A stretch of 64,000 nt of DNA from Candidatus Hinthialibacter antarcticus (GTDB lineage: Bacteria > Hinthialibacterota > Hinthialibacteria > Hinthialibacterales > Hinthialibacteraceae), in NCBI GenBank assembly GCA_030765645.1, contig JAVCCE010000054.1, positions 3,568-67,567 of the forward strand, read 5' to 3'. The notes below the pieces were generated by a model, which saw only the letters and a list, made by a program, of their open reading frames with translations, was not told the origin of the DNA and ran no database searches. Made by a program: the position numbers and the translations under genes. Below, one piece after another: positions 2,169 through 62,321 of this stretch. The stretch's first letter is position 1. Every line of letters starts with the position of its first letter.

Positions 2169-2170
2169 GT

Positions 2171-11752: not shown

Positions 11753-12002
11753 GAGGCGTTCTCCCTATATTGACTGAAAATGGCTTGACGAGTTGAAAAC
11801 AACAGTATTTCTATTTCACAAGTCATTATTCTATTATTACTCACCCAAAACCGTACTTAAGGTTCCAGAGCGTTTATCAATGAATTTATCAGAAGCGCTA
11901 TAAAACTTCAATTGAAGTCCACCGTTTTACGGACTGTCGTTTTTAAAAAATTAGACATCATGCAAGCGAGAATAGGTGGAGAATCCTAAAATACGCAAAA
12001 AT

Positions 12003-12266
12003 GGGGTTCTTCCGTAAATTGGATACTTTATCACAAATTGAACTGCGTTTTTTTTACGCTTTTTCGTAAATCCTTGATCCTTCGCTGCATCAGGCATGGG
12101 TACAACTCTGCTCGCTTCAGTGCGGGCTTTCAAGCCCTTATGCACAGGCGCTCCCAGAATTTTGCCCATGCCTGATTGGTTTGTCAGTTTTTGAAATCCC
12201 GGGGCCTGTTTCTGAATAAAAATCATGGCCATCCATCAATGTAGGTACTCACTTACCGGATGAACC
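12003..12266. repeat. Dispersed intergenic repeat family, copy A (full length, orientation 1: core GGCATGGGTACAACTCTG...CCCATGCC reads on + strand)
   Basis: Near-identical to the reverse complement of copy B (26771..27040) over about 260 bp. Core caggcatgggtacaactctgctcgcttcagtgcgggctttcaagcccttatgcacaggcgctcccag...cccatgcctga. The ORF-track 93-aa ORF 11951..12232 is a translation artefact of this element. Confidence 0.85.
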
Positions 12267-12379
12267 AAAAATGAAAAGGCAAAAACCACGTTTTCTTGTG
12301 ATCTTTGCCTTTTATATCTAAAACCGAAACGAACTCTACATCTTAAAAGGTCTGCCTAAAGATTCTCGCAGAATGGTTG

Positions 12380-26750: not shown

Positions 26751-26770
26751 TTTTCACCTATCAAATTTTA

Positions 26771-27040
26771 GGTTCATCCGGCAAGTGAGTACTTACATTG
26801 ATGGATGGCCATAATTTTTATTGAGAAACAGGCTCCGGCATTTCATAAATTGACAAACCAATCAGGCATGAGTGGAACTCTGGGAGCGCCTGTGCATAAG
26901 GGCTTGAAAGCCCGCACTGAAGCGAGCAGAGTTGTACCCATGCCTGATACAGCGAAAGATCAAGCATTTACGAAAAAACGTCAAAAAAACGCAATTCAAT
27001 TTGTGATAAAGTATCCAAATACCGGAAGAACCGAATTTTA
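26771..27040. repeat. Dispersed intergenic repeat family, copy B (full length, orientation 2)
   Basis: ggttcatccggcaagtgagtacttacattgatggatggccat...caggcatgagtggaactctgggagcgcctgtgcataagggcttgaaagcccgcactgaagcgagcagagttgtacccatgcctgatacagcgaaagatcaag... The ORF-track ORF 26805..27155 is an artefact of this element. Confidence 0.85.
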
Positions 27041-29929
27041 TTTGATTACTTTAAACGAATATTCGCCGGACGGCGTAAAGAAAACCAGTTTCTCATTTTC
27101 TGTCCGAACCAATATAACATCTCTCTGTCTGCTGAGTTCTTTTCCATTTAACTGAACTTGATCCAAGTTCGCAGCCGGAACATAAACATGAGCGGTGGTA
27201 TTCGCTGGTATCCTGACGCTTAACTCAAACATCGCTTCCGAATTTTTCCATTCGCTGCCAATCGCGCCATGAATACTTTCAACCGACGCCTTCACCCAAT
27301 GGATGGGTTCCTGTTCGGGGTTCGAGCCATATTCAGGCGGATGAGGATCAATGATGATTTCCTTGTAGCCGGGCGACGCGCAGTCGATCCCCGCCAGCGA
27401 CTGGAACATCCATTCACACACCGCGCCGAAGGCGTAATGGCTGAATGAGTTCATCGACACGCTGGCGAAACCGTCTTCTTTGGTATAGCTGTTCCAGCGC
27501 TCCCAAATGGTGGTGGCGCCGTTTTCAACTTCATACCCCCATGATGGATATCGGCGGCTTTGCAACAACCGGGCGGCCAAATCGTTATTGCCGTGACGGG
27601 TCAGCACCGTCAACAGTGGACGCGTCCCCAAAAACCCGGTGCTCATGCGAACGTCGTTTTCATTGATGAGTTCCACAAGGCGGTCGCTCGCGGCTTGCGT
27701 CTGTTCTTCCGAAACCAATCCGGCGAACAGCGCCAATGAATAGGAGGTTTGATAATCATGCTTGATGCGCCCGTCATCACTTAGGTACTTTGCGGCAAAT
27801 GCGTTTTTGATTGATGAATACAATTCACGATACTGTTTTGCGTCATCGCTTTCACCAATCGCGTCCGCCATTTCGGCCATCATTCGCGCGGATAGCGCAA
27901 AATAAACCGTATCGACATACTCAACCGGCGCAGTGTCGCCCAGCGCCAGCCAATCGCCCCAACCGTTGCCGATATTCACGCCCAAAAAGTCAGGGCTGTT
28001 GGTTTGGCGAAACTGCATGAAGCGCGTCATCGACTCGTAATGCCGTTCGATAACGCGCACGTCGCCGTACACCTTATATATTGTCCAGGGACAAATGATC
28101 CCCGCATCCATCCAGGCGGTCGCGAAGCCGCGATGGGGTTTGCCGTGCATCATCGGATAGGGCGCATAATCGGGATACGCCCCATTGGGCAATTGGGCTT
28201 CTTCTAAATCATCCAGCCATTTAGTAAAGAAGGCGGCGACGTCAGCGTTATAGCTCGCCGTTCGGATATAGGTTTGCGCATCACCCGTCCAGCCAAAGCG
28301 CTCGTCGCGTTGCGGGCAATCAGTGGGGACTTCAAAAAAGTTCGACCGCTGCGTCCAGACGATATTTTTAAACAATTGATTGACCATCGGATCAGAACAC
28401 GCAAACGAACTGGTCAGCGGCGTGTCGGAATGAATGGCGATTCCCGTGACGGTATTCAGGCTGGGCTTTTCCGTCAGGCCCGTTAATTCAACATATTGGA
28501 ATCCATGATAGGTAAAACGCGGCTCCCAGATTTCGGGCTGGCTGTCGCCGCGCAAGATGTAAGTATCCGTCGCTTGCGCCCGGCGCAGGTTTTCGGTCAT
28601 CAAGCGCCCGTCAGGGTGCAGCATCTCACCGTGGCGAATCACAATCGTATCGCCGCGCTTGCCTTTCACCTTGATCTGTACAACGCCGGAAAAGTTTTGC
28701 CCCATATTAAAGATAAAGGTTCCCGGAGAAGGCTCGGTGATCTCAATCGGTTTTATCTTCTCCGTCGGACGGATGGGGACTGACGGATAGGCAGTGATTT
28801 GCTTTGGTTCAATAAAACCAAACTCCATTTCGCGCTTACCTGCTTGGTCCGTAAACACGGCCTTGGTCGAACCATTATCTTTCGCGGGGATAGCACTCTC
28901 CCACTGCGCGTCGTCAAAGCCAGGCTGGTTCCAACCAGGTTGTTCCAGCCGCGCGTCATAGGTTTCACCCATGAGCATGTCGGCCTTAACAATCGGCCCG
29001 GTGCGAGTTTTCCAGCTGGCGTCGGTTGCGATGATTTCGCTGGTTCCGTCTGTATATTCGATCTCAAGTTGCGCCAAGAGCGCCGGGGTCTTTCCATAAA
29101 TATTGCGCCCGCTTTGGTTGGGGCCATAACCGACCAGCAAGCCATAGCCGAGATAACCGCTATACCAGCCGTCAGCGACGATGGCGCCAATCGCGTTTTG
29201 TTTAGACTGGACCAGGCTTGTCACGTCAAATGCGTTGTAGTAAACCCGTTCGCGATAATCTGACCAGCCGGGGGTAAACATTTGGTCGCTAACGCGTTTT
29301 CCGTTGATGCTCAGTTCATAGATTCCCAACGCAGACGCATAGGCCATGGCGCGTTTGATTGGCTTGTTCGCGACAAACGTCTTTCGGTAATATCGCGCTG
29401 GCGGAAGAACCATATTCTCTCTTGACGCCGACATGGGCGCATCATCTTTAAAACTGGTCCACTCCGCTTTCCAGTCTTCATTCGACAACAACCCCATTGA
29501 CCAATGCGCGGCGCTGCTCCAATGAGACGCGCGACCATCCTGCCCCCAGACGCGCACTTTCCAGAAACAATGTTGACGCGATTGTAGTGGAGCGCCTTGG
29601 TAGGCAATGTTGACGCTTTGGCTGCTTTCGGTTTTTCCTGAATCCCAAAGATCAAACTGGTTTCGATGCAACAATTCATCGCTCGAAGCAACGCAAATTT
29701 GATAGGCGGTTTGCAGGGCGCCATTTTCGTCAGAGTCCAACTTCCAACTTAAGCGCGGCTGGGTTTCATCAATGCCAATTGGGTTTACCAGATACTCGGT
29801 GCGCATGTCTTGCGCCGTGAGCGCGTCCGCCGCTGCCATCGCTCCTAGATAACCGAGAAAAATAAAAAAAACGGCTGCTGTTTTTTGAAGAGAAAAATTC
29901 ATCGTTCGCCCCATTGTTCTATATTTCAT
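27038..29929 (-). CDS. Secreted GH78 alpha-L-rhamnosidase
   Basis: N-terminal LTAQDMRTEYLVNPIGIDETQPRLSWKL and HCFWKVRVWGQDGRASHWSSAAHWSMGLL (GH78 N-domain). Six-hairpin catalytic domain follows. Signal peptide after alternative start MNFSLQK (29902). Confidence 0.8.
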   Translation of the reverse strand: MKYRTMGRTMNFSLQKTAAVFFIFLGYLGAMAAADALTAQDMRTEYLVNPIGIDETQPRLSWKLDSDENGALQTAYQICVASSDELLHRNQFDLWDSGKTESSQSVNIAYQGAPLQSRQHCFWKVRVWGQDGRASHWSSAAHWSMGLLSNEDWKAEWTSFKDDAPMSASRENMVLPPARYYRKTFVANKPIKRAMAYASALGIYELSINGKRVSDQMFTPGWSDYRERVYYNAFDVTSLVQSKQNAIGAIVADGWYSGYLGYGLLVGYGPNQSGRNIYGKTPALLAQLEIEYTDGTSEIIATDASWKTRTGPIVKADMLMGETYDARLEQPGWNQPGFDDAQWESAIPAKDNGSTKAVFTDQAGKREMEFGFIEPKQITAYPSVPIRPTEKIKPIEITEPSPGTFIFNMGQNFSGVVQIKVKGKRGDTIVIRHGEMLHPDGRLMTENLRRAQATDTYILRGDSQPEIWEPRFTYHGFQYVELTGLTEKPSLNTVTGIAIHSDTPLTSSFACSDPMVNQLFKNIVWTQRSNFFEVPTDCPQRDERFGWTGDAQTYIRTASYNADVAAFFTKWLDDLEEAQLPNGAYPDYAPYPMMHGKPHRGFATAWMDAGIICPWTIYKVYGDVRVIERHYESMTRFMQFRQTNSPDFLGVNIGNGWGDWLALGDTAPVEYVDTVYFALSARMMAEMADAIGESDDAKQYRELYSSIKNAFAAKYLSDDGRIKHDYQTSYSLALFAGLVSEEQTQAASDRLVELINENDVRMSTGFLGTRPLLTVLTRHGNNDLAARLLQSRRYPSWGYEVENGATTIWERWNSYTKEDGFASVSMNSFSHYAFGAVCEWMFQSLAGIDCASPGYKEIIIDPHPPEYGSNPEQEPIHWVKASVESIHGAIGSEWKNSEAMFELSVRIPANTTAHVYVPAANLDQVQLNGKELSRQRDVILVRTENEKLVFFTPSGEYSFKVIK

Positions 29930-29945: not shown

Positions 29946-30206
29946 CTAATAATTCGCCATCGACCGCAAGTTCCTTCGTGATTTCAGGCGAAAAATTTCA
30001 GCGAGATTGATATCCATGCGTGATGCATTATGCAAAAGCGCTTGGGTTTGTCCTGTATCAAATAGAATGCGCACGGAATCGATTTCAATAAACAAAGATA
30101 AGCTATGCTCCGCAATCAAATCGTCCGGGCGGGCTGTGTTGTTGATTAAGACAGAGACCGTACTTTGTTGAACTTTAACCATTTTAATGTGTACAGAGGT
30201 TTTCAC
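29946..30206 (-). pseudogene. 5' remnant (about 60 codons) of an MBL-fold metallo-hydrolase gene, truncated or frameshifted
   Basis: The translation VSVLINNTARPDDLIAEHSLSLFIEIDSVRILFDTGQTQALLHNASRMDINLAEI matches N-termini of MBL-fold proteins commonly linked to NifX/MinD-Fd clusters. The reading frame then runs into unrelated residues and stops after 86 aa, 17 nt before the rhamnosidase gene. Confidence 0.5.
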
Positions 30207-30522
30207 CCGTTTGCAAAGAGCCTTCCAAAAATTGTTTTGCGAGCGCTTCAGGAAGTTCCTCCGGCGCGCCGATCACAACCCGGATGGAGTATTGATCAAA
30301 CAATTGTTTGGCTTTGATGCCCATGCCGCCGCAAATAATGACGTCTGCGCCTTGCTGGTGCAACCACAAGGGCAAGACGCCAGGTTCATGAGGCGGAGGC
30401 GTGACGAGCGTCTTGCTCGTTACCTGTCCTGCTGAAGAGTCGACTTCAAGCAGAGCAAAATGTTCACAATGGCCAAAATGGGCTGCGAGTTTTTCGTTGA
30501 TGACGGGGACGGCGATTTTCAT
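30184..30522 (-). CDS. NifX/NafY-like dinitrogenase FeMo-cofactor-domain (Nitro_FeMo-Co) small protein
   Basis: MKIAVPVINEKLAAHFGHCEHFALLEV...GADVIICGGMGIKA...SIRVVIG is the canonical domain pattern. The start overlaps the stop of the upstream gene (TAATG). Confidence 0.75.
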   Translation of the reverse strand: MKIAVPVINEKLAAHFGHCEHFALLEVDSSAGQVTSKTLVTPPPHEPGVLPLWLHQQGADVIICGGMGIKAKQLFDQYSIRVVIGAPEELPEALAKQFLEGSLQTGENLCTH

Positions 30523-31439
30523 TAGTTGGCTCCTTTTTTTGAGACTTCACTTGATAAAGTTAGTCGTTGTTTTATGGTTCGCCATAGTTCTCGAATGGCG
30601 ATTGCCGACGGACCATTTGAAAATTCTGTTAATGACATTTGATTGATTTGCGCCTCGACGAAAGAACTGTCATACGGAATTCGCCCAACAACTGGCGTCC
30701 CCAGTTCGATTCCGCGCATGGTGATGCTGTGGGTGATATCCCGGTTGATATCATATTTGTTCACACAAATAACGGCTGGAATATCGAAGTGATGAGACAA
30801 TTCAACCACTCGTTCCATATCATGAAAACCGGATAACGTTGGCTCGGTGACGATAAGAACTAAATCAACGCCTGAAATTGCAGCAATGACGGGACATCCA
30901 ATCCCGGGCGGGCCGTCGATCAATATCCAATCGCAGCCAAGTGATTGGCCCCATTCAAACGCATGTCTCCGAACCAACGTTGATAGTTTTCCTGAATTCT
31001 CTTTCGCGACTTGCAAGGTTGCGTGAGTCATTGGCCCTAAACGTGAGTGAGAGCGAAACCATTCTCCATTTTCTTCTTCCCGAAGTTCGATGGCGCCGAC
31101 GGGACAATACCGGACGCAGACCCCGCATCCTTCACAGGCCAGTGAATCAACTTGATAGACGGTTCCAGCCATTGTCTCTACGGGCTGCACCGCCTCAAAT
31201 GCGCAAAGGTCAAAACAAACCCGGCAATCAATGCACTTGTCTTTTGATATATAGGCTTTTTTTCCACAACGAAACGCTCCGCGTTCAATTACTTGTGGAT
31301 TTAATACGAGGTGCAAATCAGACGCGTCGACGTCGCAATCCGCAACCATCGCATTTTGGGCGAGAGACGCGAGACATGCCGTCAAACTAGTTTTTCCGGC
31401 GCCGCCTTTTCCACTGATTATGCTAATTTGCTTCATCAT
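30522..31439 (-). CDS. MinD/Mrp-superfamily P-loop ATPase with inserted 2x[4Fe-4S] ferredoxin-like domain (COG1149 type), paralog B
   Basis: Walker A GKGGAGKTS. Inserted Cys clusters CIDCRVCFDLC and CEGCGVCVRYCP. 4-nt overlap with the paralog upstream. Confidence 0.8.
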   Translation of the reverse strand: MMKQISIISGKGGAGKTSLTACLASLAQNAMVADCDVDASDLHLVLNPQVIERGAFRCGKKAYISKDKCIDCRVCFDLCAFEAVQPVETMAGTVYQVDSLACEGCGVCVRYCPVGAIELREEENGEWFRSHSRLGPMTHATLQVAKENSGKLSTLVRRHAFEWGQSLGCDWILIDGPPGIGCPVIAAISGVDLVLIVTEPTLSGFHDMERVVELSHHFDIPAVICVNKYDINRDITHSITMRGIELGTPVVGRIPYDSSFVEAQINQMSLTEFSNGPSAIAIRELWRTIKQRLTLSSEVSKKGAN

Positions 31440-32302
31440 GGGCGGCTCTCGCTTCCGACCAATGAAGACGCAACGCTAAAATATATTTCCACCATTGGTT
31501 TTTGCACGCTTGGAACGCTCTTGACAATCAATTCTCCGCGAGAACAGGCCTCAGCGGCGATACGATCATCCGGCACCGAAGCGATAATCGGAATCGCTTC
31601 TCTCGCACAGTAATCATGCGCACAAGAATCGCCGATTCCATCCCGGTTAATGACCACGCCAAACGGAACCTCTAATAATCGCAAAAGTTCAACAATTAAA
31701 TGAAGATCGTGGACGCCGAACGGCGTCGGTTCACAGACAAGAATCACAAAATCACAATCTCGAACCGCTTCAATGGTTGGGCAGGAACAACCCGGCGGGC
31801 AATCAACGATGACAAACGAATTATCATCTGCATACGACTTTACCGTTCGGATCACAGGAACAGCAGACGGTTCTCCGATATTTAGTTTCCCCTGAACAAA
31901 TGCAAAGCCGTCCGCCCATCCCCGCTCAATATCACCAACCGTTCGCTGGCCTTTTGTGATTGCTTTTTCGGGGCATCCACGCCAACAGCCGCCGCATCCA
32001 TGACAGAGATCAGGAAACACCAAAATGTTCTTGCCCACATAAACAATTGCCTGAAACTGACAGATGTCTGCACACTGACCACATTGAGTACATAGGCTGG
32101 GATCATAACTCGGGCAGTTCACATAAACCGGCAATTTTTGATCGAGTATAGGTTTAACAAAGATATGGCAGTTCGGCTCTTCAACGTCGCAGTCAAGCAA
32201 GCAAACTGGAGCGGATGAATAACGAGATGCGATATACGCAAGATTGGCGGCGACGGTCGTTTTCCCGACGCCGCCCTTACCGCTAGCGATTGCAACTTTC
32301 AT
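31436..32302 (-). CDS. MinD/Mrp-superfamily P-loop ATPase with inserted 2x[4Fe-4S] ferredoxin-like domain (COG1149 type), paralog A
   Basis: Walker A GKGGVGKTT. Cys clusters CTQCGQCADIC and CHGCGGCWRGCP. Confidence 0.8.
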   Translation of the reverse strand: MKVAIASGKGGVGKTTVAANLAYIASRYSSAPVCLLDCDVEEPNCHIFVKPILDQKLPVYVNCPSYDPSLCTQCGQCADICQFQAIVYVGKNILVFPDLCHGCGGCWRGCPEKAITKGQRTVGDIERGWADGFAFVQGKLNIGEPSAVPVIRTVKSYADDNSFVIVDCPPGCSCPTIEAVRDCDFVILVCEPTPFGVHDLHLIVELLRLLEVPFGVVINRDGIGDSCAHDYCAREAIPIIASVPDDRIAAEACSRGELIVKSVPSVQKPMVEIYFSVASSLVGSESRP

Positions 32303-32538
32303 GTAGATAAACCGTCACGCAGCATCGGAGATTGACATTTGGGACAGATCAGCGTCTTGCATGGAACGCCGGGCTGATGAGGCGCGGTTTCGCCACAGTT
32401 AGGACAAACGCAATTTCCGTCCTGGCTCATAGCGCTTCGCCCTTTGCCCTGGCCGCGTCCCTGCCCCTGACCGCCCTTTCGTCCACCTCCGCCGGAACTT
32501 GGTCCTCGACTACCTTGTCCTGATTGGCCTTTTGGCAT
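32299..32538 (-). CDS. Mini-protein: Gly/Gln/Arg-rich N-terminus + C-terminal 4-Cys zinc-ribbon (CVCPNCG...CPKC)
   Basis: 79 aa, overlaps the downstream gene by 4 nt. Low-complexity GQGQGRGQGKGR tract followed by CxCxxC...CxxC. Confidence 0.45.
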   Translation of the reverse strand: MPKGQSGQGSRGPSSGGGGRKGGQGQGRGQGKGRSAMSQDGNCVCPNCGETAPHQPGVPCKTLICPKCQSPMLRDGLST

Positions 32539-32567
32539 TTCACTTGGCTCTCTTCCGATTGGGCCTG

Positions 32568-32918
32568 TTATGGTTCCAATGATGATGGTTCGTTGCTGGG
32601 CGGCGCTTCCAATTTCTCAATGCGTTGGTTGATGTTATCCAACAACAATTGAACTTGCTCCGCCTGTTCTTTTAGCGCGGCCAAATCCTGATTGCGGTCG
32701 AATGCAGCAACATCTAGAGAGAAGTTTCCCTGTCGGCGTCCTCTTCCAAATGAGTTGGAGGCCCTGCTCCCTCGTCTTCGTCCAACACTGCGACCAACTC
32801 GAAATGGAACGCCTCCTCTCCCTGTAGAAACATTGCTTACGGTTCCAGTACACAATCCAAAACCGCGTCCTGTGGCGGGCCCCATTCCAGAGGGGCCGCT
32901 TCGATCTTTTCCTGGCAT
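32568..32918 (-). CDS. DUF5320-like protein (Gly/Arg-rich N-terminus MPGKDRSGPSGMGPATGRGFGLCTG + C-terminal coiled coil)
   Basis: Strong RBS AAGGAGG 9 nt upstream of ATG 32918; the ORF-track extension to 32960 is unlikely to be coding. The N-terminal motif and length match DUF5320-type proteins, which co-occur with COG1149/NifX-like genes. Confidence 0.55.
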   Translation of the reverse strand: MPGKDRSGPSGMGPATGRGFGLCTGTVSNVSTGRGGVPFRVGRSVGRRRGSRASNSFGRGRRQGNFSLDVAAFDRNQDLAALKEQAEQVQLLLDNINQRIEKLEAPPSNEPSSLEP

Positions 32919-32931
32919 GATGACGACCTCC

Positions 32932-33828
32932 TTATGCACGGTTGGTTGCAACCGGTGCATCGTAATTTCCGGTGAGAATAAAATCGCCGGTCTTGCATCC
33001 GATGTCCCGTGCGATCACGGGACATTTGGCTTGTAAGAGAAAGAAAATCGGCTTTCGAATATGGCTAAGCGTTTCGTAATTGGCCTGGCCTTTTGCAATA
33101 ATTAAATCGGCGGAAGCAAACCGTTCGCGAAAAATCGGCGAGCAATCATCCAAAATACAGCCAGGCGCATCAGAGCCATTGCCAACAACACGCACCATCT
33201 GGGTCAGCCCTGTTTCCAATGCGTCTTCCATGGTTGCGTCATTAATGATTGGCTTGCCTTTCACTACATAGACAACCTTGTCGAGCGGCATTTGCGAAAG
33301 CAACAATTGGTCAAAAACGATCTCTCCCGCATTGTCGCCAAGAAATAAAATCGTCTTGGCTTCGTTGATCGCCTGTTTAAACAATTCAATCGCTGCGTTT
33401 GAGATATCTGCTGACAAACTCTTTTCAATTGATGCATGGACCGATTCATCTTCAACCGTTGCCGCAGCGCCAAAATCGATAATGTTTCCAGCGATCGCCA
33501 AGCGGACGGCGCACTCCAGTGGGTCCGCCGCGTCATCGACGTAGCGCTTCAGCCGGGGCAACAGTCTCAGCGCAAACTGGTTGAAATATTGTTTGCGTTC
33601 GTAATACGGATCGCTCTGGGTGGTTAATTCACGAATCAAACGGTGTATGCGCTGCCCCATGATCGGCGGAGGCATCGTCAGGTCCATTTCACTCACTTCT
33701 CGTAGCATGTTTCGCAACATCCCTTCGTGAATGCGCTCATCGCTCGATACAAAACGGGCAGTTGCCAGCGCCTGTTTTAAAAAACAAGGGATGCAATCAA
33801 AGTACGTTTTCATTTGCTCTGGCTCCAA
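32932..33828 (-). CDS. DUF89 (ARMT1-like metal-dependent phosphatase family) protein with N-terminal CxxC
   Basis: N-terminus MKTYFDCIPCFLKQALATARF matches the prokaryotic DUF89 start (CxPCxLRQ-like). Length is about 300 aa. Confidence 0.65.
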   Translation of the reverse strand: MEPEQMKTYFDCIPCFLKQALATARFVSSDERIHEGMLRNMLREVSEMDLTMPPPIMGQRIHRLIRELTTQSDPYYERKQYFNQFALRLLPRLKRYVDDAADPLECAVRLAIAGNIIDFGAAATVEDESVHASIEKSLSADISNAAIELFKQAINEAKTILFLGDNAGEIVFDQLLLSQMPLDKVVYVVKGKPIINDATMEDALETGLTQMVRVVGNGSDAPGCILDDCSPIFRERFASADLIIAKGQANYETLSHIRKPIFFLLQAKCPVIARDIGCKTGDFILTGNYDAPVATNRA

Positions 33829-34180
33829 CGCCGTCTTGGTCTTCGGCGCTTTTTTCTTTTAACTTTCCGGCTTTGAATTGTTTGAGGGCCTGTACGACCG
33901 ATTCCTCTGAAGAGAGATACCCCTTGATGTTCGCCGCCGACAGCGTTGTCAGGGCTTTAGGGCCGATGTTTCCGGCTATCACCACTTTGACTCCATGAGT
34001 AGCAAGCATTTTCACTGTCCCAATGCCGGCCCCGTGATCCATTTCATTATTCTCGTCATTTTCAAGCGCGTTAAATTCTTCGCTATCCGAATCGAAAATA
34101 ATAAAATACGCAGACCGGCCTAAACGTGAATTAACCCGGCTAAAGATATCCATGCCTTGTGAAGCGATTGCAATTTTCAT
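33797..34180 (-). CDS. NifX/NafY-like Nitro_FeMo-Co domain small protein (second copy)
   Basis: MKIAIASQGMDIFSRVNSRLGRSAYFIIFDSD...GVKVVIAGNIGPKALTTLSAANIKGY. Start 34180 has a GGAGAA RBS. Confidence 0.7.
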   Translation of the reverse strand: MKIAIASQGMDIFSRVNSRLGRSAYFIIFDSDSEEFNALENDENNEMDHGAGIGTVKMLATHGVKVVIAGNIGPKALTTLSAANIKGYLSSEESVVQALKQFKAGKLKEKSAEDQDGVGARANENVL

Positions 34181-34931
34181 AATGATTCTCCATTGGGATA
34201 TGCGGCTTACGCTCCGAAACGGGCGTGGTGAATTGAACCGGTAAGAAGTGTGGAGACGGCTCTCCACGATTTGAAGATGGATCACAGCGCTCTTCTAAGC
34301 ACAGTGGATTAATCAGCCGGGCTGGAATTCCCACTACGATTTCGTCGTTTTGAATAAAACCCATCTCGCGAGACGTTGGACACCCCATCGAAAGACAAAT
34401 CGTATTTCGCTGATAGGATTTTGATAACACATTGCCGCAGGTGGCCAGGAAAGTGGAAATTTGAACGCTCAACTCGTTTTGAAACATCCGCTGCCAGAGC
34501 CGAACCAACTTCATTGCTGTTCTGGGAGAGCAATATGACATGACAACATCGGGTTGCGACACGGCGCCCATTTCAAGCGCATATACACGGTCCAATCGTG
34601 GCGTAATTTCAAGAATTGAGCGAACCGAGATCCGCGTCATTCCAGTTTCTTCAGCAATGTGCTCAATCAGCGCGTTCTCGTCGACGTTCGGGTCTCCCAA
34701 ACTTCGTCTTCCACCCATGCAACTAACTTGAGAAACAGGCAGAATAAATGATTCGTTTTTTGCATTCCAAATGGCTTCGCAAACTCTCAAATTTTTCTGT
34801 GTATGCAAGGTTTTTGAATCATCGGATGGATTAATTTTCACGCCAATCCATTCGCCGCCAAATTGTTTTTTGAGTAAATCGAATAATTGTAAATGAGTCT
34901 GCGGCATAGTTACCCCTGTTTGTGTAAGCAC
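34140..34931 (-). CDS. Cys-rich hypothetical protein, possibly DUF169-like
   Basis: About 255-263 aa with multiple conserved-looking Cys (SCMGGRRS, CSPRT, CGNV, CLSMGCPTSRE). The size and context fit DUF169 (COG2043), but the assignment is tentative. The start is either 34931 or 34907. Confidence 0.4.
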   Translation of the reverse strand: MLTQTGVTMPQTHLQLFDLLKKQFGGEWIGVKINPSDDSKTLHTQKNLRVCEAIWNAKNESFILPVSQVSCMGGRRSLGDPNVDENALIEHIAEETGMTRISVRSILEITPRLDRVYALEMGAVSQPDVVMSYCSPRTAMKLVRLWQRMFQNELSVQISTFLATCGNVLSKSYQRNTICLSMGCPTSREMGFIQNDEIVVGIPARLINPLCLEERCDPSSNRGEPSPHFLPVQFTTPVSERKPHIPMENHYENCNRFTRHGYL

Positions 34932-35296
34932 GGCTTGTTGTCTGTCTCGAATGAACGTTGTTTTGCGCAGCCCGGCATCAAAAATTGTTCTTGCATCAGC
35001 TGGTTTGACAGATAGGCTTCGACAACTTCATCAATCAATCCACAAATATGTTCTGTGACTTCGATTTCTCTCAGTTGAAGCATTTTTTCTAATGGTCGAG
35101 AAATCGCCCCGCAAATCAGTTGGTCTACTTTAAATTCATCAATTCGCGCGGCCCGATTGATTCCAATACACCCTTCCAGGTCATGTTCTTTTCGCCCATG
35201 TTCTTTGCCATCAATCAGCTCAATGACCAGCAAGCGATTGGCGGTATCAAATACAGGAGCGATTCGTGAAAAGAGAACTGGAAGAGCAATCTTCAT
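34910..35296 (-). CDS. NifX-like Nitro_FeMo-Co domain small protein (third, more divergent copy)
   Basis: MKIALPVLFSRIAPVFDTANRLLVIEL...VDQLICGAISRPLEKMLQLREIEV follows the MKIA.P..., ...VICGGIG, ...GI.V domain pattern. ATG at 35296 verified in sequence. Confidence 0.6.
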   Translation of the reverse strand: MKIALPVLFSRIAPVFDTANRLLVIELIDGKEHGRKEHDLEGCIGINRAARIDEFKVDQLICGAISRPLEKMLQLREIEVTEHICGLIDEVVEAYLSNQLMQEQFLMPGCAKQRSFETDNKPCLHKQG

Positions 35297-35433
35297 AACA
35301 CTCATACAAAGTGCAGGAAACATTCCAAAACACAAAAATTCTCTAAGTCGTTATCAACCGGTGTGTTATGATAGGAATTGGCTTGAGGGGGGAGGAGAGA
35401 TATCTGCAATTTGCAATGGTAAAGCGAGACGAA

Positions 35434-36813
35434 CTACTGCATTTTGCTAGTGTTGATGTGTTGCCGACCATCTGTTTCAGGGAGTAGAATCCCGAGCGAT
35501 TTAATCTTTCGAAACAGCGTCGTCGGGTGGATGCCCAGCGCTTTGGCTGCTGCCGTGCGGTTGCCGTGATACTGATTGAGCGTGTTGGTGATGTGAATGG
35601 TTTCGAGTTTTTGCAAGGACAAACTCTTTTGATCATTCCATTCATACGCCTTGTTGCTGTCGGTGAGGTACGGAGGCAAATGGGTCGCTTCGATCAAGGG
35701 GCCTCTACAAAGAACGAAGGCGTGTTCGATGATGTTTTCTAATTCTCGAATATTGCCCGGGAACGGATACGTCATAAGAGCAGCCATGACTCTATCTGAT
35801 ACATGAGAAATTGCTTTTTCGTGCACCCGGTTAAACGACGAGATGAAGTGTTGAACTAACAAGGGGATGTCTTCACGACGCTCTCGAAGAGGCGGAATTT
35901 CAATGCGAATCACATTGACGCGATAAAACAAATCTTCACGGAATTTACCCCGGCGCACTAATTGGTGCAAGTCTTTGTTCGATGCAGCAATGACCCGAAC
36001 GTCAACCGTCTGTGACTTGGTTGCGCCAAGAGGCTCAAACGTTTTTTCTTGCAAAAAGCGCAAGAGACGGACTTGCATGGCAGGCGAGACATCACCAATT
36101 TCATCGAGAAAAATCGTCCCGTGGTCCGCTAGAGCAAACCGCCCGGGCTTATCGCGTTTCGCGTCGGTAAACGCCCCCGCTTTATAACCAAACAATTCTG
36201 ATTCAAGCAACGTATCCGGCAGGGCGCCGCAATTGATGGCAATAAACGCCTTGTTGTTTCGGGAGGATAAATGATGAATCGCGCGCGCAAATAATTCTTT
36301 CCCGGTACCGCTTTCACCTATTAGTACAGACGTTGCATCGCTGGCGGCAACTTGTGGGAGCACATCGAAGATTCGCTTCATGCCGGCGCTGTGTCCGACA
36401 ATATCTTCAAAGGAGTATTTCTCGTACAACTTCTTCCGCAGTTCTTCTACTTGGCTTAAATCGCGAAACGTCTCCACCCCGCCGACAACAGCGCCCCGGG
36501 AATTTTTGAGCAAAGCCGTTGAGATACTGATCGGAATCTGGTTGCCTTTCAGGTCGATAATATAGATTGTTCTATTGATGATGGGGGCGCCTGTTTTAAG
36601 GGTATGTTTGAGGGCGCAATGGCTTTCGCAGATACTCGAGCGAAATACCTCACAACAGGGCTTGCCGACAGCGTCTTGGCGTGAAATCCCAATGATTTTT
36701 TCTGCTGCGCGGTTGAATGACGTTACATTCCAGTTGCGATCAACGGTAAATACGCCATCAGCGATAGAATCAAGAATGATGTCGGTTGCGCTGTTTTCTG
36801 GTTGTTCAAACAC
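35434..36813 (-). CDS. Sigma-54-dependent transcriptional activator (bEBP) with N-terminal PAS sensor carrying a Cys-rich motif, and no receiver domain
   Basis: PAS region (ILDSIADGVFTVDRNWNVTSFNRAAEKIIG). Cys cluster GKPCCEVFRSSICESHCALKH. AAA+ sigma-54 interaction domain (GESGTGKELFA, GAFTDA, ESELFGY). C-terminal Fis-type HTH. Confidence 0.85.
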   Translation of the reverse strand: MFEQPENSATDIILDSIADGVFTVDRNWNVTSFNRAAEKIIGISRQDAVGKPCCEVFRSSICESHCALKHTLKTGAPIINRTIYIIDLKGNQIPISISTALLKNSRGAVVGGVETFRDLSQVEELRKKLYEKYSFEDIVGHSAGMKRIFDVLPQVAASDATSVLIGESGTGKELFARAIHHLSSRNNKAFIAINCGALPDTLLESELFGYKAGAFTDAKRDKPGRFALADHGTIFLDEIGDVSPAMQVRLLRFLQEKTFEPLGATKSQTVDVRVIAASNKDLHQLVRRGKFREDLFYRVNVIRIEIPPLRERREDIPLLVQHFISSFNRVHEKAISHVSDRVMAALMTYPFPGNIRELENIIEHAFVLCRGPLIEATHLPPYLTDSNKAYEWNDQKSLSLQKLETIHITNTLNQYHGNRTAAAKALGIHPTTLFRKIKSLGILLPETDGRQHINTSKMQ

Positions 36814-37010
36814 TTTTCTCTCGACAAAAATGTTAAGTGCGATTCAGCATTATATAAATGATGCAACGAATCGAAGGCCGATTCTACTGCTACATCCACA
36901 CATCATTCTGGTAAAACACAAAACGAATCGATATAAGCGATGAAACGCTCCGCTCGACATGAACGGGGCGCTTTCTATTGCACGTCTTTCTCCCAGAAAC
37001 TGACAGTAAA

Positions 37011-37193
37011 TGACAAACCAAATTTGGCATGGATGCGACTCTGGGAGCGCCTGTGCATGAGGGCCTGAAAGCCCGCACTGAAGCGAGCAGAGTGGCGCCC
37101 ATGCCTGATACAGCGAAGGATCAAGGATTTACAAAAAAGTGTCAAAAAAACGAAATCCAATTTGTGATAAAGTATCCAAATACCGGAAGAACC
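37011..37193. repeat. Dispersed intergenic repeat family, copy C (orientation 2, left module truncated)
   Basis: tgacaaaccaaatttggcatggatgcgactctgggagcgcctgtgcatgagggcctgaaagcccgcactgaagcgagcagagtggcgcccatgcctgatacagcgaaggatcaag...ccggaagaacc. The ORF-track ORF 37029..37259 is an artefact. Confidence 0.8.
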
Positions 37194-37354
37194 ATTAAAG
37201 TGTATATAGAGAATCAAGACTTAGAAAAGGAAGATGACTTTCGAATAAGTGAATCGTAAGGCGGAGAAATTGATTGACGTTACTGAAAATCATACTGCAT
37301 CAGGGCTTTTGGCTCGCAAGGCTTCTCAATGGCGTACCCTGGAGGATATTTAGA

Positions 37355-38944
37355 ATGAAAACATTCTGCTGGCTTGTAATTGTTGCGTCTCTGAATTTAT
37401 TTGGCCTAATAACAATTGCCGATGAATTAGAAATTAAACTATTCGATGGCGAGAAATTCTGGGGCGGATGCGTCACCGATGGCCGTGCGATGCCTTATGG
37501 CGAGTCGAAATTTGATCGAGACTTATACGGAGATACTCAAGGCAACCAGGCGCAACCGTTGTTGATATCAAACAAAGGCCGCTATGTTTGGTGCGAAGAG
37601 CCTTTTGAATTTGAATTCGATAATAATCGCCTTACAGTGAAATCAATTGCGGGAAAAATCGAGTCGGGCAAGTCTGGCGATACGCTGCGAGACGCATTCC
37701 TGCATGTAAGCAAAACATACTTTCCAAGCACAGGCGAATTGCCTGATGAACTGCTCTTCATTAAACCCCAATACAACACCTGGATTGAATTAATTTACGA
37801 TCAACGCGAAGGCCGAATTCGCAAATACGCAAACGACATCATCGACAATGGATTTCCGGCAGGGGTGTTGATGATCGACGACAATTGGCAGGAAGACTAT
37901 GGCGTGTGGGATTTTCACCCGGGACGTTTTCAAGACCCAAAAGGGATGATGGAGCATTTGCACGGTCTTGGGTTTAAAGTGATGTTGTGGATTTGTCCGT
38001 ACTTCAGCCCGGACAGCGAAACATTTCGTTTGCTAAACAGAAAACGCTATTTCCTACTGGATGAACGCACGGGCGCCTACTTATGCCGCTGGTGGAACGG
38101 CTATAGCGCCTCGCTTGATCTTACAAACCCGGAAGCGGTGGAGTATTTTCAAAGCCGTCTCAAATATCTGGTCGATGAATATGGCGCCGATGGTTTCAAA
38201 CTCGATGCGGGTGACGCGAGAGCCTATACCGACCCCAATATCATTGCCAATGAAACGATTAACCCAAACGAATTTTCTGAGCGCTGGGCTAAATTGGGAT
38301 TGCCCTTCAAACTGAATGAGTACCGCGCTTGTTGGAAGATGGCGGGACAACCGCTGGCGCAACGGCTTCGGGATAAAGGCCACAACTGGCGCGACCTTGG
38401 TCAACTTGTTCCCGACGCCTTGGCGTTAAGCATAATGGGCTACGCGTTTATATGCCCTGATATGATAGGAGGCGGCGAGTATAGCTACTTCTATAACAAC
38501 CCCGACAAACCACTCGATCAGGAACTGATCGTTCGTTCCGCTCAATGTTCTGCATTGATGCCGATGATGCAATTCTCCGTCGCGCCGTGGCGCGTGTTAA
38601 ACGAAGAAAACATGGCCATCTGTCGCGACATGGCTTTGCTGCATGAGAAGATGGGGCCGGAAATTCTCGCCATCGCCAAAGCATCCGCTGAGTCGGGCGA
38701 ACCCATGGTGCGCCACATGGAATATCAGTATCCCCATCAAGGCTATGCGGAGATTAAGGACCAATTTCTTCTTGGAGAAAACCTACTCATTGCGCCCGTT
38801 CTTGAGAAAGGCGCCCGGACGCGAACCATCGTTTTCCCTGAAGGCAAGTGGCAAGGAGACGACGGAATGGTCGTGCAAGGGCCTAGTACAACAACCGTTG
38901 ATGCGCCGCTCACGCGGCTGCCCTGGTTTAGAAAAATCAACTAA
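37355..38944 (+). CDS. Secreted TIM-barrel glycoside hydrolase, clan GH-D-like (GH31/GH36/GH27-related)
   Basis: Signal peptide from MKTFCWLVIVAS (GGAGG RBS). The motifs GVLMIDDNWQEDYGVWDF, FQDPKGMMEHLHGLGFKVMLWICPYFSP and GADGFKLDAGDA resemble the beta-strand 3/4 regions of clan GH-D alpha-glycosidases. Confidence 0.5.
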   Translation: MKTFCWLVIVASLNLFGLITIADELEIKLFDGEKFWGGCVTDGRAMPYGESKFDRDLYGDTQGNQAQPLLISNKGRYVWCEEPFEFEFDNNRLTVKSIAGKIESGKSGDTLRDAFLHVSKTYFPSTGELPDELLFIKPQYNTWIELIYDQREGRIRKYANDIIDNGFPAGVLMIDDNWQEDYGVWDFHPGRFQDPKGMMEHLHGLGFKVMLWICPYFSPDSETFRLLNRKRYFLLDERTGAYLCRWWNGYSASLDLTNPEAVEYFQSRLKYLVDEYGADGFKLDAGDARAYTDPNIIANETINPNEFSERWAKLGLPFKLNEYRACWKMAGQPLAQRLRDKGHNWRDLGQLVPDALALSIMGYAFICPDMIGGGEYSYFYNNPDKPLDQELIVRSAQCSALMPMMQFSVAPWRVLNEENMAICRDMALLHEKMGPEILAIAKASAESGEPMVRHMEYQYPHQGYAEIKDQFLLGENLLIAPVLEKGARTRTIVFPEGKWQGDDGMVVQGPSTTTVDAPLTRLPWFRKIN

Positions 38945-51870: not shown

Positions 51871-51916
51871 CTTTCTGGATGCTTTTTTTATACATTGAAT
51901 TGAGATTTCGCTGCAT

Positions 51917-52094
51917 GTGGCATGGGCACATCTCTGCTCGCTTCGGTGCGGGCTTTCAGGCCCTTTTGCACAGGCGCTCCCAGAGTTGCACCCATGCCTG
52001 AATTGGTTTGTCAATTATTGATACGCCGGGATATGTTTTCGTAATCAAAATCATGACCATCCATCAATGGAGGCACTCGCTTACCGGATGAACC
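51917..52094. repeat. Dispersed intergenic repeat family, copy E (orientation 1, lacks the distal approx. 90-bp module)
   Basis: gtggcatgggcacatctctgctcgcttcggtgcgggctttcaggcccttttgcacaggcgctcccagagttgcacccatgcctgaattggtttgtcaattattgatacgccgggatatgttttcgtaatcaaaatcatgaccatccatcaatggaggcactcgcttaccggatgaacc. Confidence 0.85.
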
Positions 52095-52191
52095 TTTTTT
52101 CATATATCGGAAAGTTATTCTCAACAAAAAACCTGCTTTGGTTTCCTTTTATGATTTATCACCTGTATATTGTTTGGAATCTCAACTGTTT

Positions 52192-53139: not shown

Positions 53140-53190
53140 CATGTTTCAGAATTAATTTGGTTCAGGTTTTTGGAACCGCACAAGAACGAT

Positions 53191-53358
53191 CAGGCATGGG
53201 TACATCTCTGCTCGCTTCGGTGCGGGCTATCATGCCCTTATGCACAGGCGCTCCCAGAGTTGCGCCCATGCCTGAATTGGTTGGTCGATTTTTGATATGC
53301 CGAAATACGTTTTCGGAATCAAAATTATGATTATCCAGCAATATAATTACTCACTTGC
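53191..53358. repeat. Dispersed intergenic repeat family, copy F (orientation 1, divergent)
   Basis: caggcatgggtacatctctgctcgcttcggtgcgggctatcatgcccttatgcacaggcgctcccagagttgcgcccatgcctgaattggttggtcgatttttgatatgccgaaatacgttttcggaatcaaaattatgattatccagcaatataattactcacttgccagatggacc. Confidence 0.8.
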
Positions 53359-53403
53359 CAGATGGACCATAAAAGTGATTTTTGAATTTGCGCGGCGCCA
53401 TCC

Positions 53404-56795: not shown

Positions 56796-56882
56796 TTATT
56801 TCTCATCAGAGAGGCGCCTTCAGTCGCCATTTTTGATTTTTTCTTTTGAACCTATCTGCGTTATTTGCAGTCTCAGTCATAA

Positions 56883-62295: not shown

Positions 62296-62321
62296 AAATC
62301 CACTAAGAGATTCATCAAAAT

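Follow-up and report, generated by a model that had tools for sequence, protein, structure and literature searches.

A probable ORP (orange protein) system with its regulator OrpR in a single operon of Candidatus Hinthialibacter antarcticus

The ORP (orange protein) complex and its regulator OrpR have been under study in Desulfovibrio since 2011 (PMC8359166, PMC6345978, PMC3897727, PMC4641369). In Desulfovibrio vulgaris Hildenborough (DvH) the genes form two divergent operons, in the layout orp7-orp8-orp9, orpR (DVU2106), orp5-orp4-orp3. The PAS domain of DvH OrpR, with residues C52, D/E54, C61 and C65, has been shown experimentally to carry a redox-sensitive [4Fe-4S] cluster (PMC8359166). The orange protein of D. 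gigas carries a [S2MoS2CuS2MoS2] cluster, and MrpORP (Orp9), an Mrp/NBP35-family Fe-S carrier, has a Di-Nase domain at its C-terminus. A role in cell division was the first to be proposed for Desulfovibrio ORP.

Composition of the locus

The DNA analysed is a 64-kb stretch (the window) from Ca. Hinthialibacter antarcticus, of the candidate phylum Hinthialibacterota. This host is a facultative anaerobe at an oxic-anoxic, sulfidic interface.

The minus-strand open reading frames of the original prediction are all present where it placed them. The features of the locus, in order of transcription, are:

35434..36813, minus strand: orpR-type sigma-54 enhancer-binding protein, 459 aa (Pfam PAS_9, Sigma54_activat at 227 bits, AAA_lid_14, HTH_8)
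35437..35447, minus strand: putative upstream activator site 1, GCAAAATGCAG, overlapping the orpR stop codon
35404..35414, minus strand: putative upstream activator site 2, GCAAATTGCAG, inside the palindrome TTGCAAATTGCA (from its sequence and the paired sites of relatives)
35312..35327, minus strand: predicted sigma-54 -24/-12 promoter, TGGAATGTTTCCTGCA, 15 nt before the ATG at 35296
34910..35296, minus strand: NifX-like A, in the Orp7 position, 128 aa (PF02579, 25.4 bits)
34140..34907, minus strand: DUF169 protein, 255 aa, an accessory in a non-canonical position (PF02596, 77 bits)
33797..34180, minus strand: NifX-like B, orange protein (Orp8) homologue, 127 aa (Pfam, 73 bits)
32932..33813, minus strand: DUF89/ARMT1-type metal-dependent phosphatase, 293 aa (PF01937, 230 bits; N-terminal DCIPC motif)
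32568..32918, minus strand: DUF5320 protein (PF17253, 66 bits), with a Gly-rich MPGxDRxGP... N-terminus and a coiled-coil C-terminus
32299..32538, minus strand: Gly/Arg-rich small protein, 79 aa, candidate Orp5 equivalent, with a C-terminal CxCPxCG...PH...C...CPxC module
31436..32302, minus strand: MinD-type ATPase with an inserted 2x[4Fe-4S] ferredoxin (Orp3/Orp4 type), 288 aa (Pfam CbiA/ParA and 2x Fer4)
30522..31439, minus strand: second MinD-type ATPase with a 2x[4Fe-4S] insert (Orp3/Orp4 type), 305 aa (Pfam CbiA/ParA and 2x Fer4)
30184..30522, minus strand: NifX-like C, a stand-alone MrpORP (Orp9) C-terminal Di-Nase domain, 112 aa (Pfam, 63 bits)
29946..30182, minus strand: N-terminal stump of an MBL-fold gene (pseudogene fragment), 78 aa, likely start 30182

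The cluster is colinear with the D. vulgaris orp system, genes and motifs matching one for one. On this sequence evidence the locus is very probably an ORP system with its cognate regulator OrpR, in a single-operon form. A ten-gene operon had been proposed; its last member (29946-30206) is the MBL stump, so the locus consists of nine intact operon genes, a pseudogene fragment and the regulator. The predicted tight coupling is borne out by start/stop overlaps in the sequence (cTAATGaaa at 30522, cATGAtg at 31436-31439, cATGAaa at 32299-32302), and the quoted overlaps are real, except that some shrink with homology-supported starts (DUF89 33813, DUF5320 32918, DUF169 34907). No terminator-like sites were found on the coding strand within the operon.

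The predicted domain content agrees with Pfam HMMs. NifX-like A is just below threshold (25.4 bits, cut-off 26.3), and its orthologues in related loci L001, L004 and L088 exceed the cut-off. Orthology to Orp3, Orp4, Orp5, Orp7 and OrpR was assigned from published motifs, descriptions and gene order rather than from reciprocal best hits, since the D. gigas ORP was the sole Orp sequence compared.

The recurrent gene order in related loci is orpR, NifX-A, NifX-B, (DUF5320), small Cys protein, ATPase, ATPase, (Mrp), NifX-C, which maps onto orp7-orp8-orp9 plus orp5-orp4-orp3. At least one core gene is present in 50 of 55 loci, and NifX-A or NifX-B lies directly 3' of the regulator in 42 of the 55. 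Other Fe-S genes occur nearby (Mrp/NUBPL in 17 loci, NifU_N in 6). The window differs from DvH in having one colinear operon downstream of the regulator, in its additional DUF169, DUF89 and DUF5320 genes, in a Di-Nase domain without the fused Mrp/NBP35 P-loop domain, and in its host, a facultative anaerobe of a candidate phylum. Neither the Mrp/NBP35 domain of Orp9 nor an rpoN gene was found within the 64-kb window, and both absences count against the ORP/OrpR reading.

The original prediction is supported in part. It had described the cluster as undescribed and without assigned function; the ORP complex and OrpR are published in the four reports cited above, and the cluster is a further example of that known system. 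That it is instead a metallocofactor maturation module not described before, serving an unknown client and having no relation to the systems studied so far, is very unlikely. In favour of that view, no client enzyme or biochemical function is on record, and DUF89, DUF169 and DUF5320 have no link to ORP in the searchable literature; against it, the published ORP/OrpR system has the same core genes, regulator motifs and promoter architecture.

Regulator, promoter and candidate activator sites

The domains found in the regulator confirm that a dedicated sigma-54/PAS activator is present. Its PAS domain contains the motif C53-x-E55-x6-C62-x3-C66, invariant in A1, with the cysteines spaced exactly as in the published Fe-S triad of OrpR. 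It also has the rare GAFTDA loop, matching DVU2106. This sigma-54 activator resembles that of DvH in both its Fe-S-binding PAS cysteine triad and its loop. It is 69% identical to the regulator of L088 and 56% identical to that of L092, which adjoins a protein 70% identical to the crystallised D. gigas ORP. A facultative anaerobe at an oxic-anoxic interface fits redox-gated expression.

Like DvH, the window has a predicted sigma-54 promoter with paired palindromic sites upstream. The 64 kb contain two exact copies of the 11-mer GCAAAWTGCAG, 33 bp from each other, where 0.23 would be expected. Pairs of the form TTGCA-N3/4-TGCAA, with a spacing of about 32 bp, lie in the same place in L010, L011 and L065. 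Across 48 related loci from more than 15 phyla, a GG-N10-GC site no more than 60 nt from the first gene is found in 37 (1.3 in shuffles) and paired sites in 25 (0.1 in shuffles). The distance from promoter to first gene is 12-14 nt in the closest relatives, as in the window. The activator site of DvH is GGGCGYRTTTTGCGCCC, whereas the window sites are TTGCA-N3-TGCAG, so that both sequence and spacing differ. The promoter departs from the consensus at -21 and -19 (TGGAAT). This departure and the differences in the activator sites count against the ORP/OrpR reading.

Core proteins and accessories

As in DvH, there is an orange-protein homologue, a second NifX-like protein and an Orp9-type Di-Nase domain. 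NifX-like B is 33% identical to the D. gigas ORP over 108 residues (BLASTP, E 1.4e-19), and is the only one of the paralogues that the D. gigas protein matches. It also matches the structure of that protein (Megalodesulfovibrio, PDB 2WFB; E 1e-13), with T. maritima TM1290 (1RDU) and MTH1175 (1EO1) scoring slightly higher. The two proteins have the same single-domain size and moderate identity, and Mo-Cu binding is not readable from the sequence.

The Orp8 match bears on a second possible role for an ORP system, namely the binding or detoxification of thiometallates (Mo/W/Cu-sulfide) from sulfidic water, to which the [S2MoS2CuS2MoS2] cluster of the D. gigas protein points. We regard this as quite improbable. 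Orp8 homologues bind a Mo-Cu cluster non-covalently, copper surfaces strongly affect the orp genes of D. alaskensis, and the host lives at a sulfidic interface; against this, the neighbourhoods contain no recurring molybdate, tungstate or copper transporter or Mo-cofactor gene, and the ligand is not identifiable from sequence.

NifX-like C scores 122.5 bits with the NCBIfam MrpORP model, over model positions 265-365, the C-terminal 100 residues of that model. Its motifs AAHFGHCE, TPPPHEPGVLP and C-terminal CTH correspond to the published CxHFGHCE, TPPPHxPGxxP and CDH, so that HFGHCE, TPPPHxPGxxP and C(D/T)H are kept. It differs in standing alone, in the replacement of the first Cys of CxHFGHCE by Ala, and in lacking the P-loop domain of the carrier, which is a separate gene in relatives (17 loci).

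Three PF02579 domains might suggest a nitrogenase FeMo-cofactor accessory set (NifX/NafY). That reading is barely credible, given 19.7 bits with the TIGR02663 nifX model against a cut-off of 112, and nifHDK, nifEN and nifB found neither in the window nor in related loci. The locus is likewise free of hydrogenase genes and, as predicted, of radical-SAM genes, and no canonical nif or hydrogenase maturation cluster occurs in any of about 90 related loci. The proposal of Fe-S or metal-cluster handling rather than nitrogenase agrees with published reports on the homologous system.

The small Cys-rich protein gives only weak zinc-ribbon matches (Pfam). It is found in 26 loci, each time just upstream of the ATPase pair, and is fused to NifX-like A in seven loci and to DUF134 in L002. 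This position agrees with the orp5-orp4-orp3 order of DvH, where a small Cys-rich protein also precedes two paralogous MinD-ferredoxin ATPases.

The two ATPases are 28% identical and 45% similar to each other (the published similarity of Orp3 and Orp4 is 41%). Each has ten conserved cysteines, of which Cys38 and Cys174 lie outside the ferredoxin-type clusters. Compared with the NifH/BchL/CooC/Mrp class, they insert a two-cluster ferredoxin domain after strand 2 and belong to a family with no known partner enzyme; no solved structure was found for this family. In a fold search NifH, ApbC and BchL score almost as high as MinD, so that positioning and metallocentre ATPases are not separable in this way. 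It is unlikely that the ATPases of an ORP system here serve cell division or spatial positioning, with the Fe-S clusters only regulating them. The MinD resemblance is counterbalanced by these near-equal scores and by the ten cysteines per subunit. NCBIfam MinD models give 48-68 bits against cut-offs of 202-213, and MinC, MinE and ParB partners are found in none of about 90 loci, the recurrent neighbours being Mrp, NifU, radical SAM and NifX-fold proteins.

Among the accessories, DUF89 and DUF5320 recur and DUF169 is rare. The DUF89 protein matches the structures 2FFJ and 2G8L (PDB); it retains intact DNAG and KGxxN motifs, and 10 of 10 ORP-linked copies share the CxxC. DUF5320 is found in at least 19-37 related loci, with a conserved N-terminal motif. 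Only five close relatives of the DUF169 protein were found. Its gene sits 3' of MBL-NUDIX in L088 and L090 and is absent from the other 87 loci; in the window it is displaced and has a non-homologous tail of approximately 50 aa.

The truncated 3' end and a proposed mechanism

The closest relative, L088, is an uncharacterised metagenomic locus with a 14-gene operon. It shares with the window the regulator, NifX-A, NifX-B, DUF89, DUF5320, both ATPases, NifX-C, the start of the MBL gene and DUF169. It differs in having a TrmO-like gene, a full-length MBL gene, NUDIX, an FmdB zinc ribbon and a radical-SAM gene, in carrying DUF169 at its 3' end, and in lacking a small Cys protein of the window type. 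The MBL stump aligns only with residues 4-62 of the 279-aa L088 protein, at 41% identity, and stops before HxHxDH; it has no Pfam match. In L088, L090, L011, L047 and L073 the gene after NifX-like C is a full-length MBL gene. Judged from these sequences, the window operon derives by erosion and rearrangement from a longer L088-type operon and appears to have lost the 3' part. The absence of a radical-SAM gene is probably a secondary loss, since L088 has one in the same operon. The flanking repeats noted originally (26765-27039 and 37004-37193) are real, being 87% identical. The element has at least six copies in the window and is therefore genome-wide, not specific to the cluster and uninformative about it.

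With its 3' end truncated, the ORP system may be partly disabled. That the remaining genes are a decaying remnant, no longer functional here, is a distinctly unlikely reading: the MBL gene is cut to 78 aa, the TrmO-like, NUDIX, FmdB and radical-SAM genes are missing from the window, and DUF169 is displaced with its foreign tail, but all nine open reading frames are intact with catalytic and ligand motifs, the regulator, its candidate sites and the promoter are kept, and L001, L004 and many other loci have the same core with no 3' extension.

For a working ORP system, we propose, by motif identity with DvH OrpR, that C53, C62 and C66 (with E55) of the PAS domain ligate a redox-sensitive [4Fe-4S] cluster. 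The activator would bind the GCAAAWTGCAG sites, 33 bp apart and about 90-135 bp upstream of the promoter TGGAATgtttcCTGCA, and only at low redox potential would its AAA+ domain, with the GAFTDA loop, remodel sigma-54 RNA polymerase. Transcription would begin a few nt before the first start codon and run through the nine coupled genes. By analogy with results from pull-downs and Fe-S transfer in Desulfovibrio, the gene products may form an Fe-S-rich complex of two deviant-Walker-A MinD-type ATPases, the small Cys-rich protein and three NifX-fold proteins (Orp7-like, orange protein Orp8, and Orp9 C-terminal-domain type). Each ATPase would contribute two ferredoxin-type clusters together with the conserved Cys38 and Cys174. 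The ATPase heterodimer would putatively act like the NifH/Mrp/CooC-class nucleotide switches, with ATP gating the transfer of electrons or clusters to or from clusters that the NifX-fold carriers bind non-covalently.

On this proposal the putative task of the system would be to handle Fe-S or heterometal-sulfide clusters specifically under anaerobiosis, with DUF89, DUF5320 and DUF169 as accessories particular to certain lineages.

Identity of the cluster

The cluster had been proposed as an undescribed metallocofactor module. This original prediction was accurate in its description and reasonable in its functional guess, but it erred in calling the system undescribed: judged by its sequence, the locus belongs with the ORP/OrpR systems, ORP being the orange protein and OrpR the sigma-54 activator of the Desulfovibrio orp genes. 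The first lead came from NifX-like C, which matched the C-terminal domain (positions 265-365) of the NCBIfam family 'iron-sulfur cluster carrier protein MrpORP' with 122.5 bits; the full cut-off of 450 bits was not reached.

In D. vulgaris Hildenborough (DvH), OrpR (DVU2106) sits between orp7-orp8-orp9 and orp5-orp4-orp3. Orp8 is the orange protein itself and Orp5 a small Fe-S protein; Orp3 and Orp4 are both ATPases of MinD-like type that bear two ferredoxin motifs, and in Orp9 (MrpORP) a Mrp/NBP35 ATPase carries a fused, NifX-like 'Di-Nase' domain (PMC8359166, PMC6345978, PMC3897727). In the Desulfovibrio system Orp3, 4, 5, 8 and 9 form a physical complex, and expression is limited to low redox potential.

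The predicted run of ORFs is present on the minus strand from 36813 to 29946, and each of the proposed domain assignments is upheld by Pfam: an activator with PAS, Sigma54_activat and HTH_8 domains, three PF02579 (NifX-fold) proteins, DUF169, DUF89/ARMT1, DUF5320 and two CbiA/ParA ATPases, both with a double CxxCxxCxxxC insert. NifX-like A scores 25.4 bits against PF02579, slightly below the cut-off of 26.3; its orthologues in related loci exceed the cut-off. The start-stop junctions (TAATG, ATGA and ATGA) read as predicted, and no terminator-like hairpin was found inside the operon on the coding strand. The predicted ORFs stand, but homology revised the starts of DUF89, DUF5320 and DUF169, and the terminal 'gene' is merely the first ~60 residues of an MBL-fold protein, ending before HxHxDH.

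Features of the cluster
35434-36813, minus, OrpR-type regulator
35437-35447, minus, candidate activator site, GCAAAWTGCAG
35404-35414, minus, candidate activator site, GCAAAWTGCAG
35312-35327, minus, predicted sigma-54 -24/-12 promoter, TGGAATgtttcCTGCA
34910-35296, minus, NifX-like A
start at 34907, minus, DUF169 protein
33797-34180, minus, NifX-like B
start at 33813, minus, DUF89 protein
start at 32918, minus, DUF5320 protein
32299-32538, minus, small Cys protein
31436-32302, minus, ATPase
30522-31439, minus, ATPase
30184-30522, minus, NifX-like C
29946-30182, minus, MBL-fold stump, ~62 homologous residues, then cut

The gene order is regulator, NifX-A, (DUF169), NifX-B, (DUF89, DUF5320), small Cys protein, ATPase, ATPase, NifX-C, which corresponds to orp7-orp8, then orp5-orp4-orp3 and the Orp9 C-terminal domain, end to end. 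D. gigas ORP is the sole Orp sequence compared directly, and several of the Orp equivalences rest on published motifs and gene order. The window shares with the described systems the regulator Cys triad, the GAFTDA loop, a sigma-54 promoter with paired upstream sites, paired Fe-S ATPases, an ORP homologue and the Di-Nase motifs. It differs from them in having neither a fused Mrp domain, nor the divergent two-operon layout, nor the DvH activator-site sequence. The 'Orange protein' of a 2026 preprint on MCR activation is the SYPRO Orange stain, and is unrelated to ORP.

Regulator and regulatory DNA

Relatives were sought by scanning the PAS domain of the regulator against one genome per species (185,579 species genomes). 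There are at least 562 PAS-domain relatives, and the best 80 of these (57-68% identity) span more than 15 phyla, including Planctomycetota, Desulfobacterota, Zixibacteria, Spirochaetia, Verrucomicrobiota and Lentisphaerae. The nearest regulator to that of the window (69% identity) is in the most closely related locus, L088.

The PAS domain of the window carries the motif C53-x-E55-x6-C62-x3-C66, with a spacing identical to that of C52, D/E54, C61 and C65 in DvH OrpR, the residues that hold its redox-sensing [4Fe-4S] cluster (PMC8359166). The Cys motif is invariant in the three-sequence alignment A1, with E or D at position 55, and is present in 71/84 regulators of related loci. The sigma-54 contact loop, at about 36177, is GAFTDA rather than GAFTGA, and DVU2106 is listed with this same variant. 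One related locus, L092, ties the ends together: its regulator is 56% identical to that of the window, with the same Cys motif and GAFTDA, and stands ahead of a protein 70% identical to the crystallised D. gigas ORP. It thereby connects the window-type regulator with a D. gigas-type ORP.

In Desulfovibrio an intact PAS [4Fe-4S] cluster, as present at low redox potential, is needed for the activator to be on; by analogy the window activator would behave in the same way. The published description of Ca. Hinthialibacter antarcticus makes it a facultative anaerobe of the oxic-anoxic interface in Ace Lake, and such a host at an oxycline fits with an OrpR that would switch the system on only at low redox potential. 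The paper describing this organism does not mention the ORP-cluster genes.

The regulator is not always found beside ORP genes. Five of 55 loci (L025, L029, L043, L059 and L069) have an OrpR-type PAS regulator with no ORP genes nearby, the neighbours including DNA ligase, Mfd, a histidine kinase and a fucose isomerase-like gene. These five homologues are treated here as orphans, and imply that some genomes keep the regulator apart from its presumed targets.

Between the regulator and the first gene lie 137 bp, which include TGGAATGTTTCCTGCA. Its GG and GC have the correct spacing, and the site stops 15 nt short of the ATG at 35296. By itself this promoter call would be weak, but it is backed by its position and conservation. 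Motifs were counted on true intergenic sequence from 48 related regions. A GG-N10-GC with at least 8/12 consensus positions, no more than 60 nt from the first gene, is present in 37 of them, against 1.3 regions on average (maximum 4) in shuffled sequences. A strict consensus search allowing up to two mismatches missed the real site and gave fewer matches than chance. A very short promoter-to-start distance of 12-14 nt is common to the closest relatives, and the promoter ends 12-20 nt before the annotated start in L010, L011, L020, L022, L023, L065, L075, L077, L079 and the window. Such distances would imply near-leaderless transcripts without a Shine-Dalgarno sequence in several phyla.

Further upstream, 33/48 regions have one or more palindromes of the form TTGCA-N3/4-TGCAA and 25/48 have two or more, compared to 2.6 and 0.1 in shuffles. 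The window has two candidate activator sites, 33 bp apart, with the 11-mer GCAAAWTGCAG, which occurs exactly twice in 64 kb against 0.23 occurrences expected by chance. A similar pairing at ~32 bp is seen in L010, L011 and L065. The predicted promoter, with candidate palindromic sites ~90-130 bp upstream, has the arrangement that characterises ORP/OrpR systems, the DvH sites being at -88 and -131. The paired layout therefore resembles that of DvH, but the site sequence is unlike the DvH GGGCGYRTTTTGCGCCC: the window sites are AT-richer, and have a GC...GC spacing of 7 instead of 9.

Core and accessory proteins

NifX-like B matches D. gigas ORP (PDB 2WFB) by BLASTP with 33% identity and E 1.4e-19 (E 1e-13 in a separate search); the other NifX paralogues of the window do not match it, and no mutual similarity is detectable among the three. 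The published Di-Nase motifs of MrpORP are CxHFGHCE, TPPPHxPGxxP and CDH. NifX-like C has AAHFGHCE, TPPPHEPGVLP and a C-terminal CTH, and thus differs in having its first Cys replaced by Ala. A Mrp/NBP35 P-loop domain with CXXC, searched for with the Mrp of related locus L004, has no match in the 64-kb window. The original prediction was right in excluding nitrogenase: a NifX/NafY accessory assignment was rejected on the nifX model TIGR02663 (19.7 bits against 112) and on the absence of nif genes from the window and the related loci.

The proteins nearest to D. gigas ORP (68-75% identity) are encoded in L005, L006, L007 and L091, in a core of ORP, ATPase, ATPase and NifX. Among the loci with such homologues, L005, L006 and L091 are core clusters without OrpR, and L092 has OrpR. 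An FmdB-type zinc ribbon is added in L005 and L006. In L006 and L007 a DUF134 gene lies upstream in place of the OrpR-type regulator, indicating that there is a second regulatory flavour of the ORP system.

The two window ATPases have 28% identity and 45% similarity to each other, comparable to the 41% similarity reported for DvH Orp3 and Orp4. Both are CbiA/ParA plus Fer4 proteins in Pfam with a deviant Walker A, GKGGxGKT, and their eight ferredoxin Cys are invariant in 50/50 homologues from the loci. Both have two extra Cys, namely Cys38 in a DCD after Walker A (44/50) and Cys174 in a PGxxCP after Walker B (50/50), which could form a NifH-like inter-subunit cluster or metal site.

By analogy with Desulfovibrio, where the Orp products form an Fe-S-rich complex and a Mrp-type carrier loads the ATPases, the window products would form such a complex, with the ATPases loaded by a carrier of this type. 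We infer that the ATPase heterodimer may be a switch, gated by ATP, for redox or cluster-transfer reactions of the clusters that the NifX-fold proteins hold. A role in binding thiometallates is a live alternative, and so is the cell-division role that has been proposed for the system. With regard to the latter, a fold search does not separate MinD from metallocentre ATPases. Assignment as a MinD equivalog was rejected (minD_bact 47.9 bits against 212.9; minD_arch 68.2 against 201.75), and the Min partners MinC and MinE were not found in the cluster neighbourhoods of related loci.

The small Cys protein, just upstream of the ATPase pair, has 79 residues with five Cys and one His. Its family motif, CxCPxCG-x3-PH-x3-GxPC-x5-CPxCG, is found in 26 loci, invariably immediately before the ATPase pair, and on the basis of this position the protein is taken as a candidate Orp5 equivalent. 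In seven genomes (L018, L034, L041, L053, L067, L078 and L084) the module is fused to NifX-A through a Gly/Arg-rich linker, and in L002 it is fused to a DUF134 DNA-binding protein. These fusions point to a physical link between the components. The best annotated homologue of Dde_3197, which corresponds to Orp5, is a NifX-annotated protein, in agreement with the fusions to NifX-A. The small Cys-rich protein counts as a core component. It was also considered as a Zn_ribbon_8/FmdB type, but alignment shows that these are different families.

DUF89 was found by tblastn in 12 loci, counting the window and L088, mostly Planctomycetota-like. An N-terminal DC[IVY]PC is present in every copy examined (a 10-member cluster), and full-length copies have intact phosphatase motifs. 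The window protein scores 230 bits against PF01937 and has the DNxG and KGxxN metal-binding motifs. It falls short of the NCBIfam equivalog cut-offs (181 bits against 440), and is therefore placed in the family only, without an assigned specificity.

DUF5320 is widespread in ORP clusters, with the conserved N-terminus MP[RG]GD[RG]TGPxGxGPxTGRGxGxC. The same N-terminal peptide, MP[RG]GD[RG]TGPxGxGP, occurs on DUF5320 and on several small Cys proteins (window, L001, L015, L036, L065 and L079), which suggests a common docking or modification motif. The DUF169 protein, between NifX-A and NifX-B, has a ~50-residue non-homologous tail and just five close relatives in a large protein index.

Related loci, surroundings and function

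Searches with the window proteins (tblastn) give a recurring gene order of OrpR, NifX-A, NifX-B, DUF5320, small Cys protein, ATPase, ATPase, an optional Mrp and NifX-C. In the 55 loci with enough downstream sequence, NifX-A or NifX-B directly follows the regulator in 42, and at least one core gene is present in 50. DvH has two divergent operons around its regulator, whereas the window has a single colinear operon; among these loci, which were sampled by PAS-domain similarity to the window, the colinear operon is the commonest layout (42/55).

The closest relative, L088, has a 14-gene operon (284-9842): OrpR, NifX, NifX, DUF89, DUF5320, TrmO-like, ATPase, ATPase, NifX, MBL, NUDIX, DUF169, FmdB zinc ribbon and radical SAM. 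L089 and L090 have parts of this arrangement. NUDIX, DUF169 and radical SAM occur together in all three, with the FmdB zinc ribbon between DUF169 and radical SAM in L088 and L090, and a TrmO-like gene ahead of NUDIX in L089. The window has no TrmO-like, NUDIX, FmdB or radical-SAM gene, and of the MBL-fold gene, which as a rule comes after the last NifX-like gene, it has just the stump. A gene for a GH78 rhamnosidase starts 17 nt past the stop codon of the MBL stump, and the cut gene with its adjoining rhamnosidase indicates that the ancestral operon had its 3' part replaced through a deletion or insertion. Given the absent 3' genes, the stump and the displaced DUF169, the window holds a rearranged, 3'-eroded derivative.

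Surroundings of the cluster
27038-29929, GH78 alpha-L-rhamnosidase
37274-38944, GH31
11998-12272, minus, dispersed intergenic repeat
26765-27039, plus, dispersed intergenic repeat
37004-37193, plus, dispersed intergenic repeat
51900-52101, minus, dispersed intergenic repeat
53174-53375, minus, dispersed intergenic repeat
56726-56802, dispersed intergenic repeat
62188-62374, plus, dispersed intergenic repeat

The cluster is set among glycoside hydrolase genes (GH78 and GH31), which agrees with the published account of the host as a polysaccharide degrader. The repeats that had been noted on its flanks are not specific to the cluster: the element (~190-275 nt) has at least six copies across the 64 kb. 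Its ~95-nt core is nearly invariant, and folds as an extended imperfect hairpin (dG -49.5 kcal/mol; z -6.5 and -5.2 on the two strands). An Rfam search of the window, including the repeat, gave no match, and there are no compensatory changes among the copies. Since its orientation is independent of the neighbouring genes, the repeat resembles a REP/MITE-like element.

When all neighbours in the loci were clustered without bias, no large enzyme emerged as a candidate client. Families that recur beside the core are Mrp/NUBPL (17 loci), radical SAM (14), MBL (11), DUF89 (10), an HdrD-like CCG protein (8), NifU_N (6) and sensor kinases; the radical-SAM protein stays below the cut-off of every curated family. 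It is conceivable, though we consider it improbable, that the ORP core and its recurrent shell (DUF89 phosphatase with CxxC, MBL hydrolase, radical-SAM enzyme, FmdB zinc ribbon, NUDIX, TrmO-like protein and DUF169) would synthesise or repair a novel complex metal-sulfide cofactor or a modified small protein carrier, only in anoxia, with the Gly-rich DUF5320 and zinc-ribbon proteins (shared N-terminus MPRGDGTGP...) as scaffolds or substrates and the window as a reduced version.

The locus adds no new kind of system, and what is new here is modest: a further phylum, a facultative anaerobe as host, and a clearer view of core, accessory shell and conserved regulatory layout. The ORP system is present in very many anaerobes, and its architecture of regulator, promoter and activator sites is conserved far outside Desulfobacterota, with an accessory shell of DUF89 with CxxC, MBL, radical SAM, Mrp and NifU travelling with the core.
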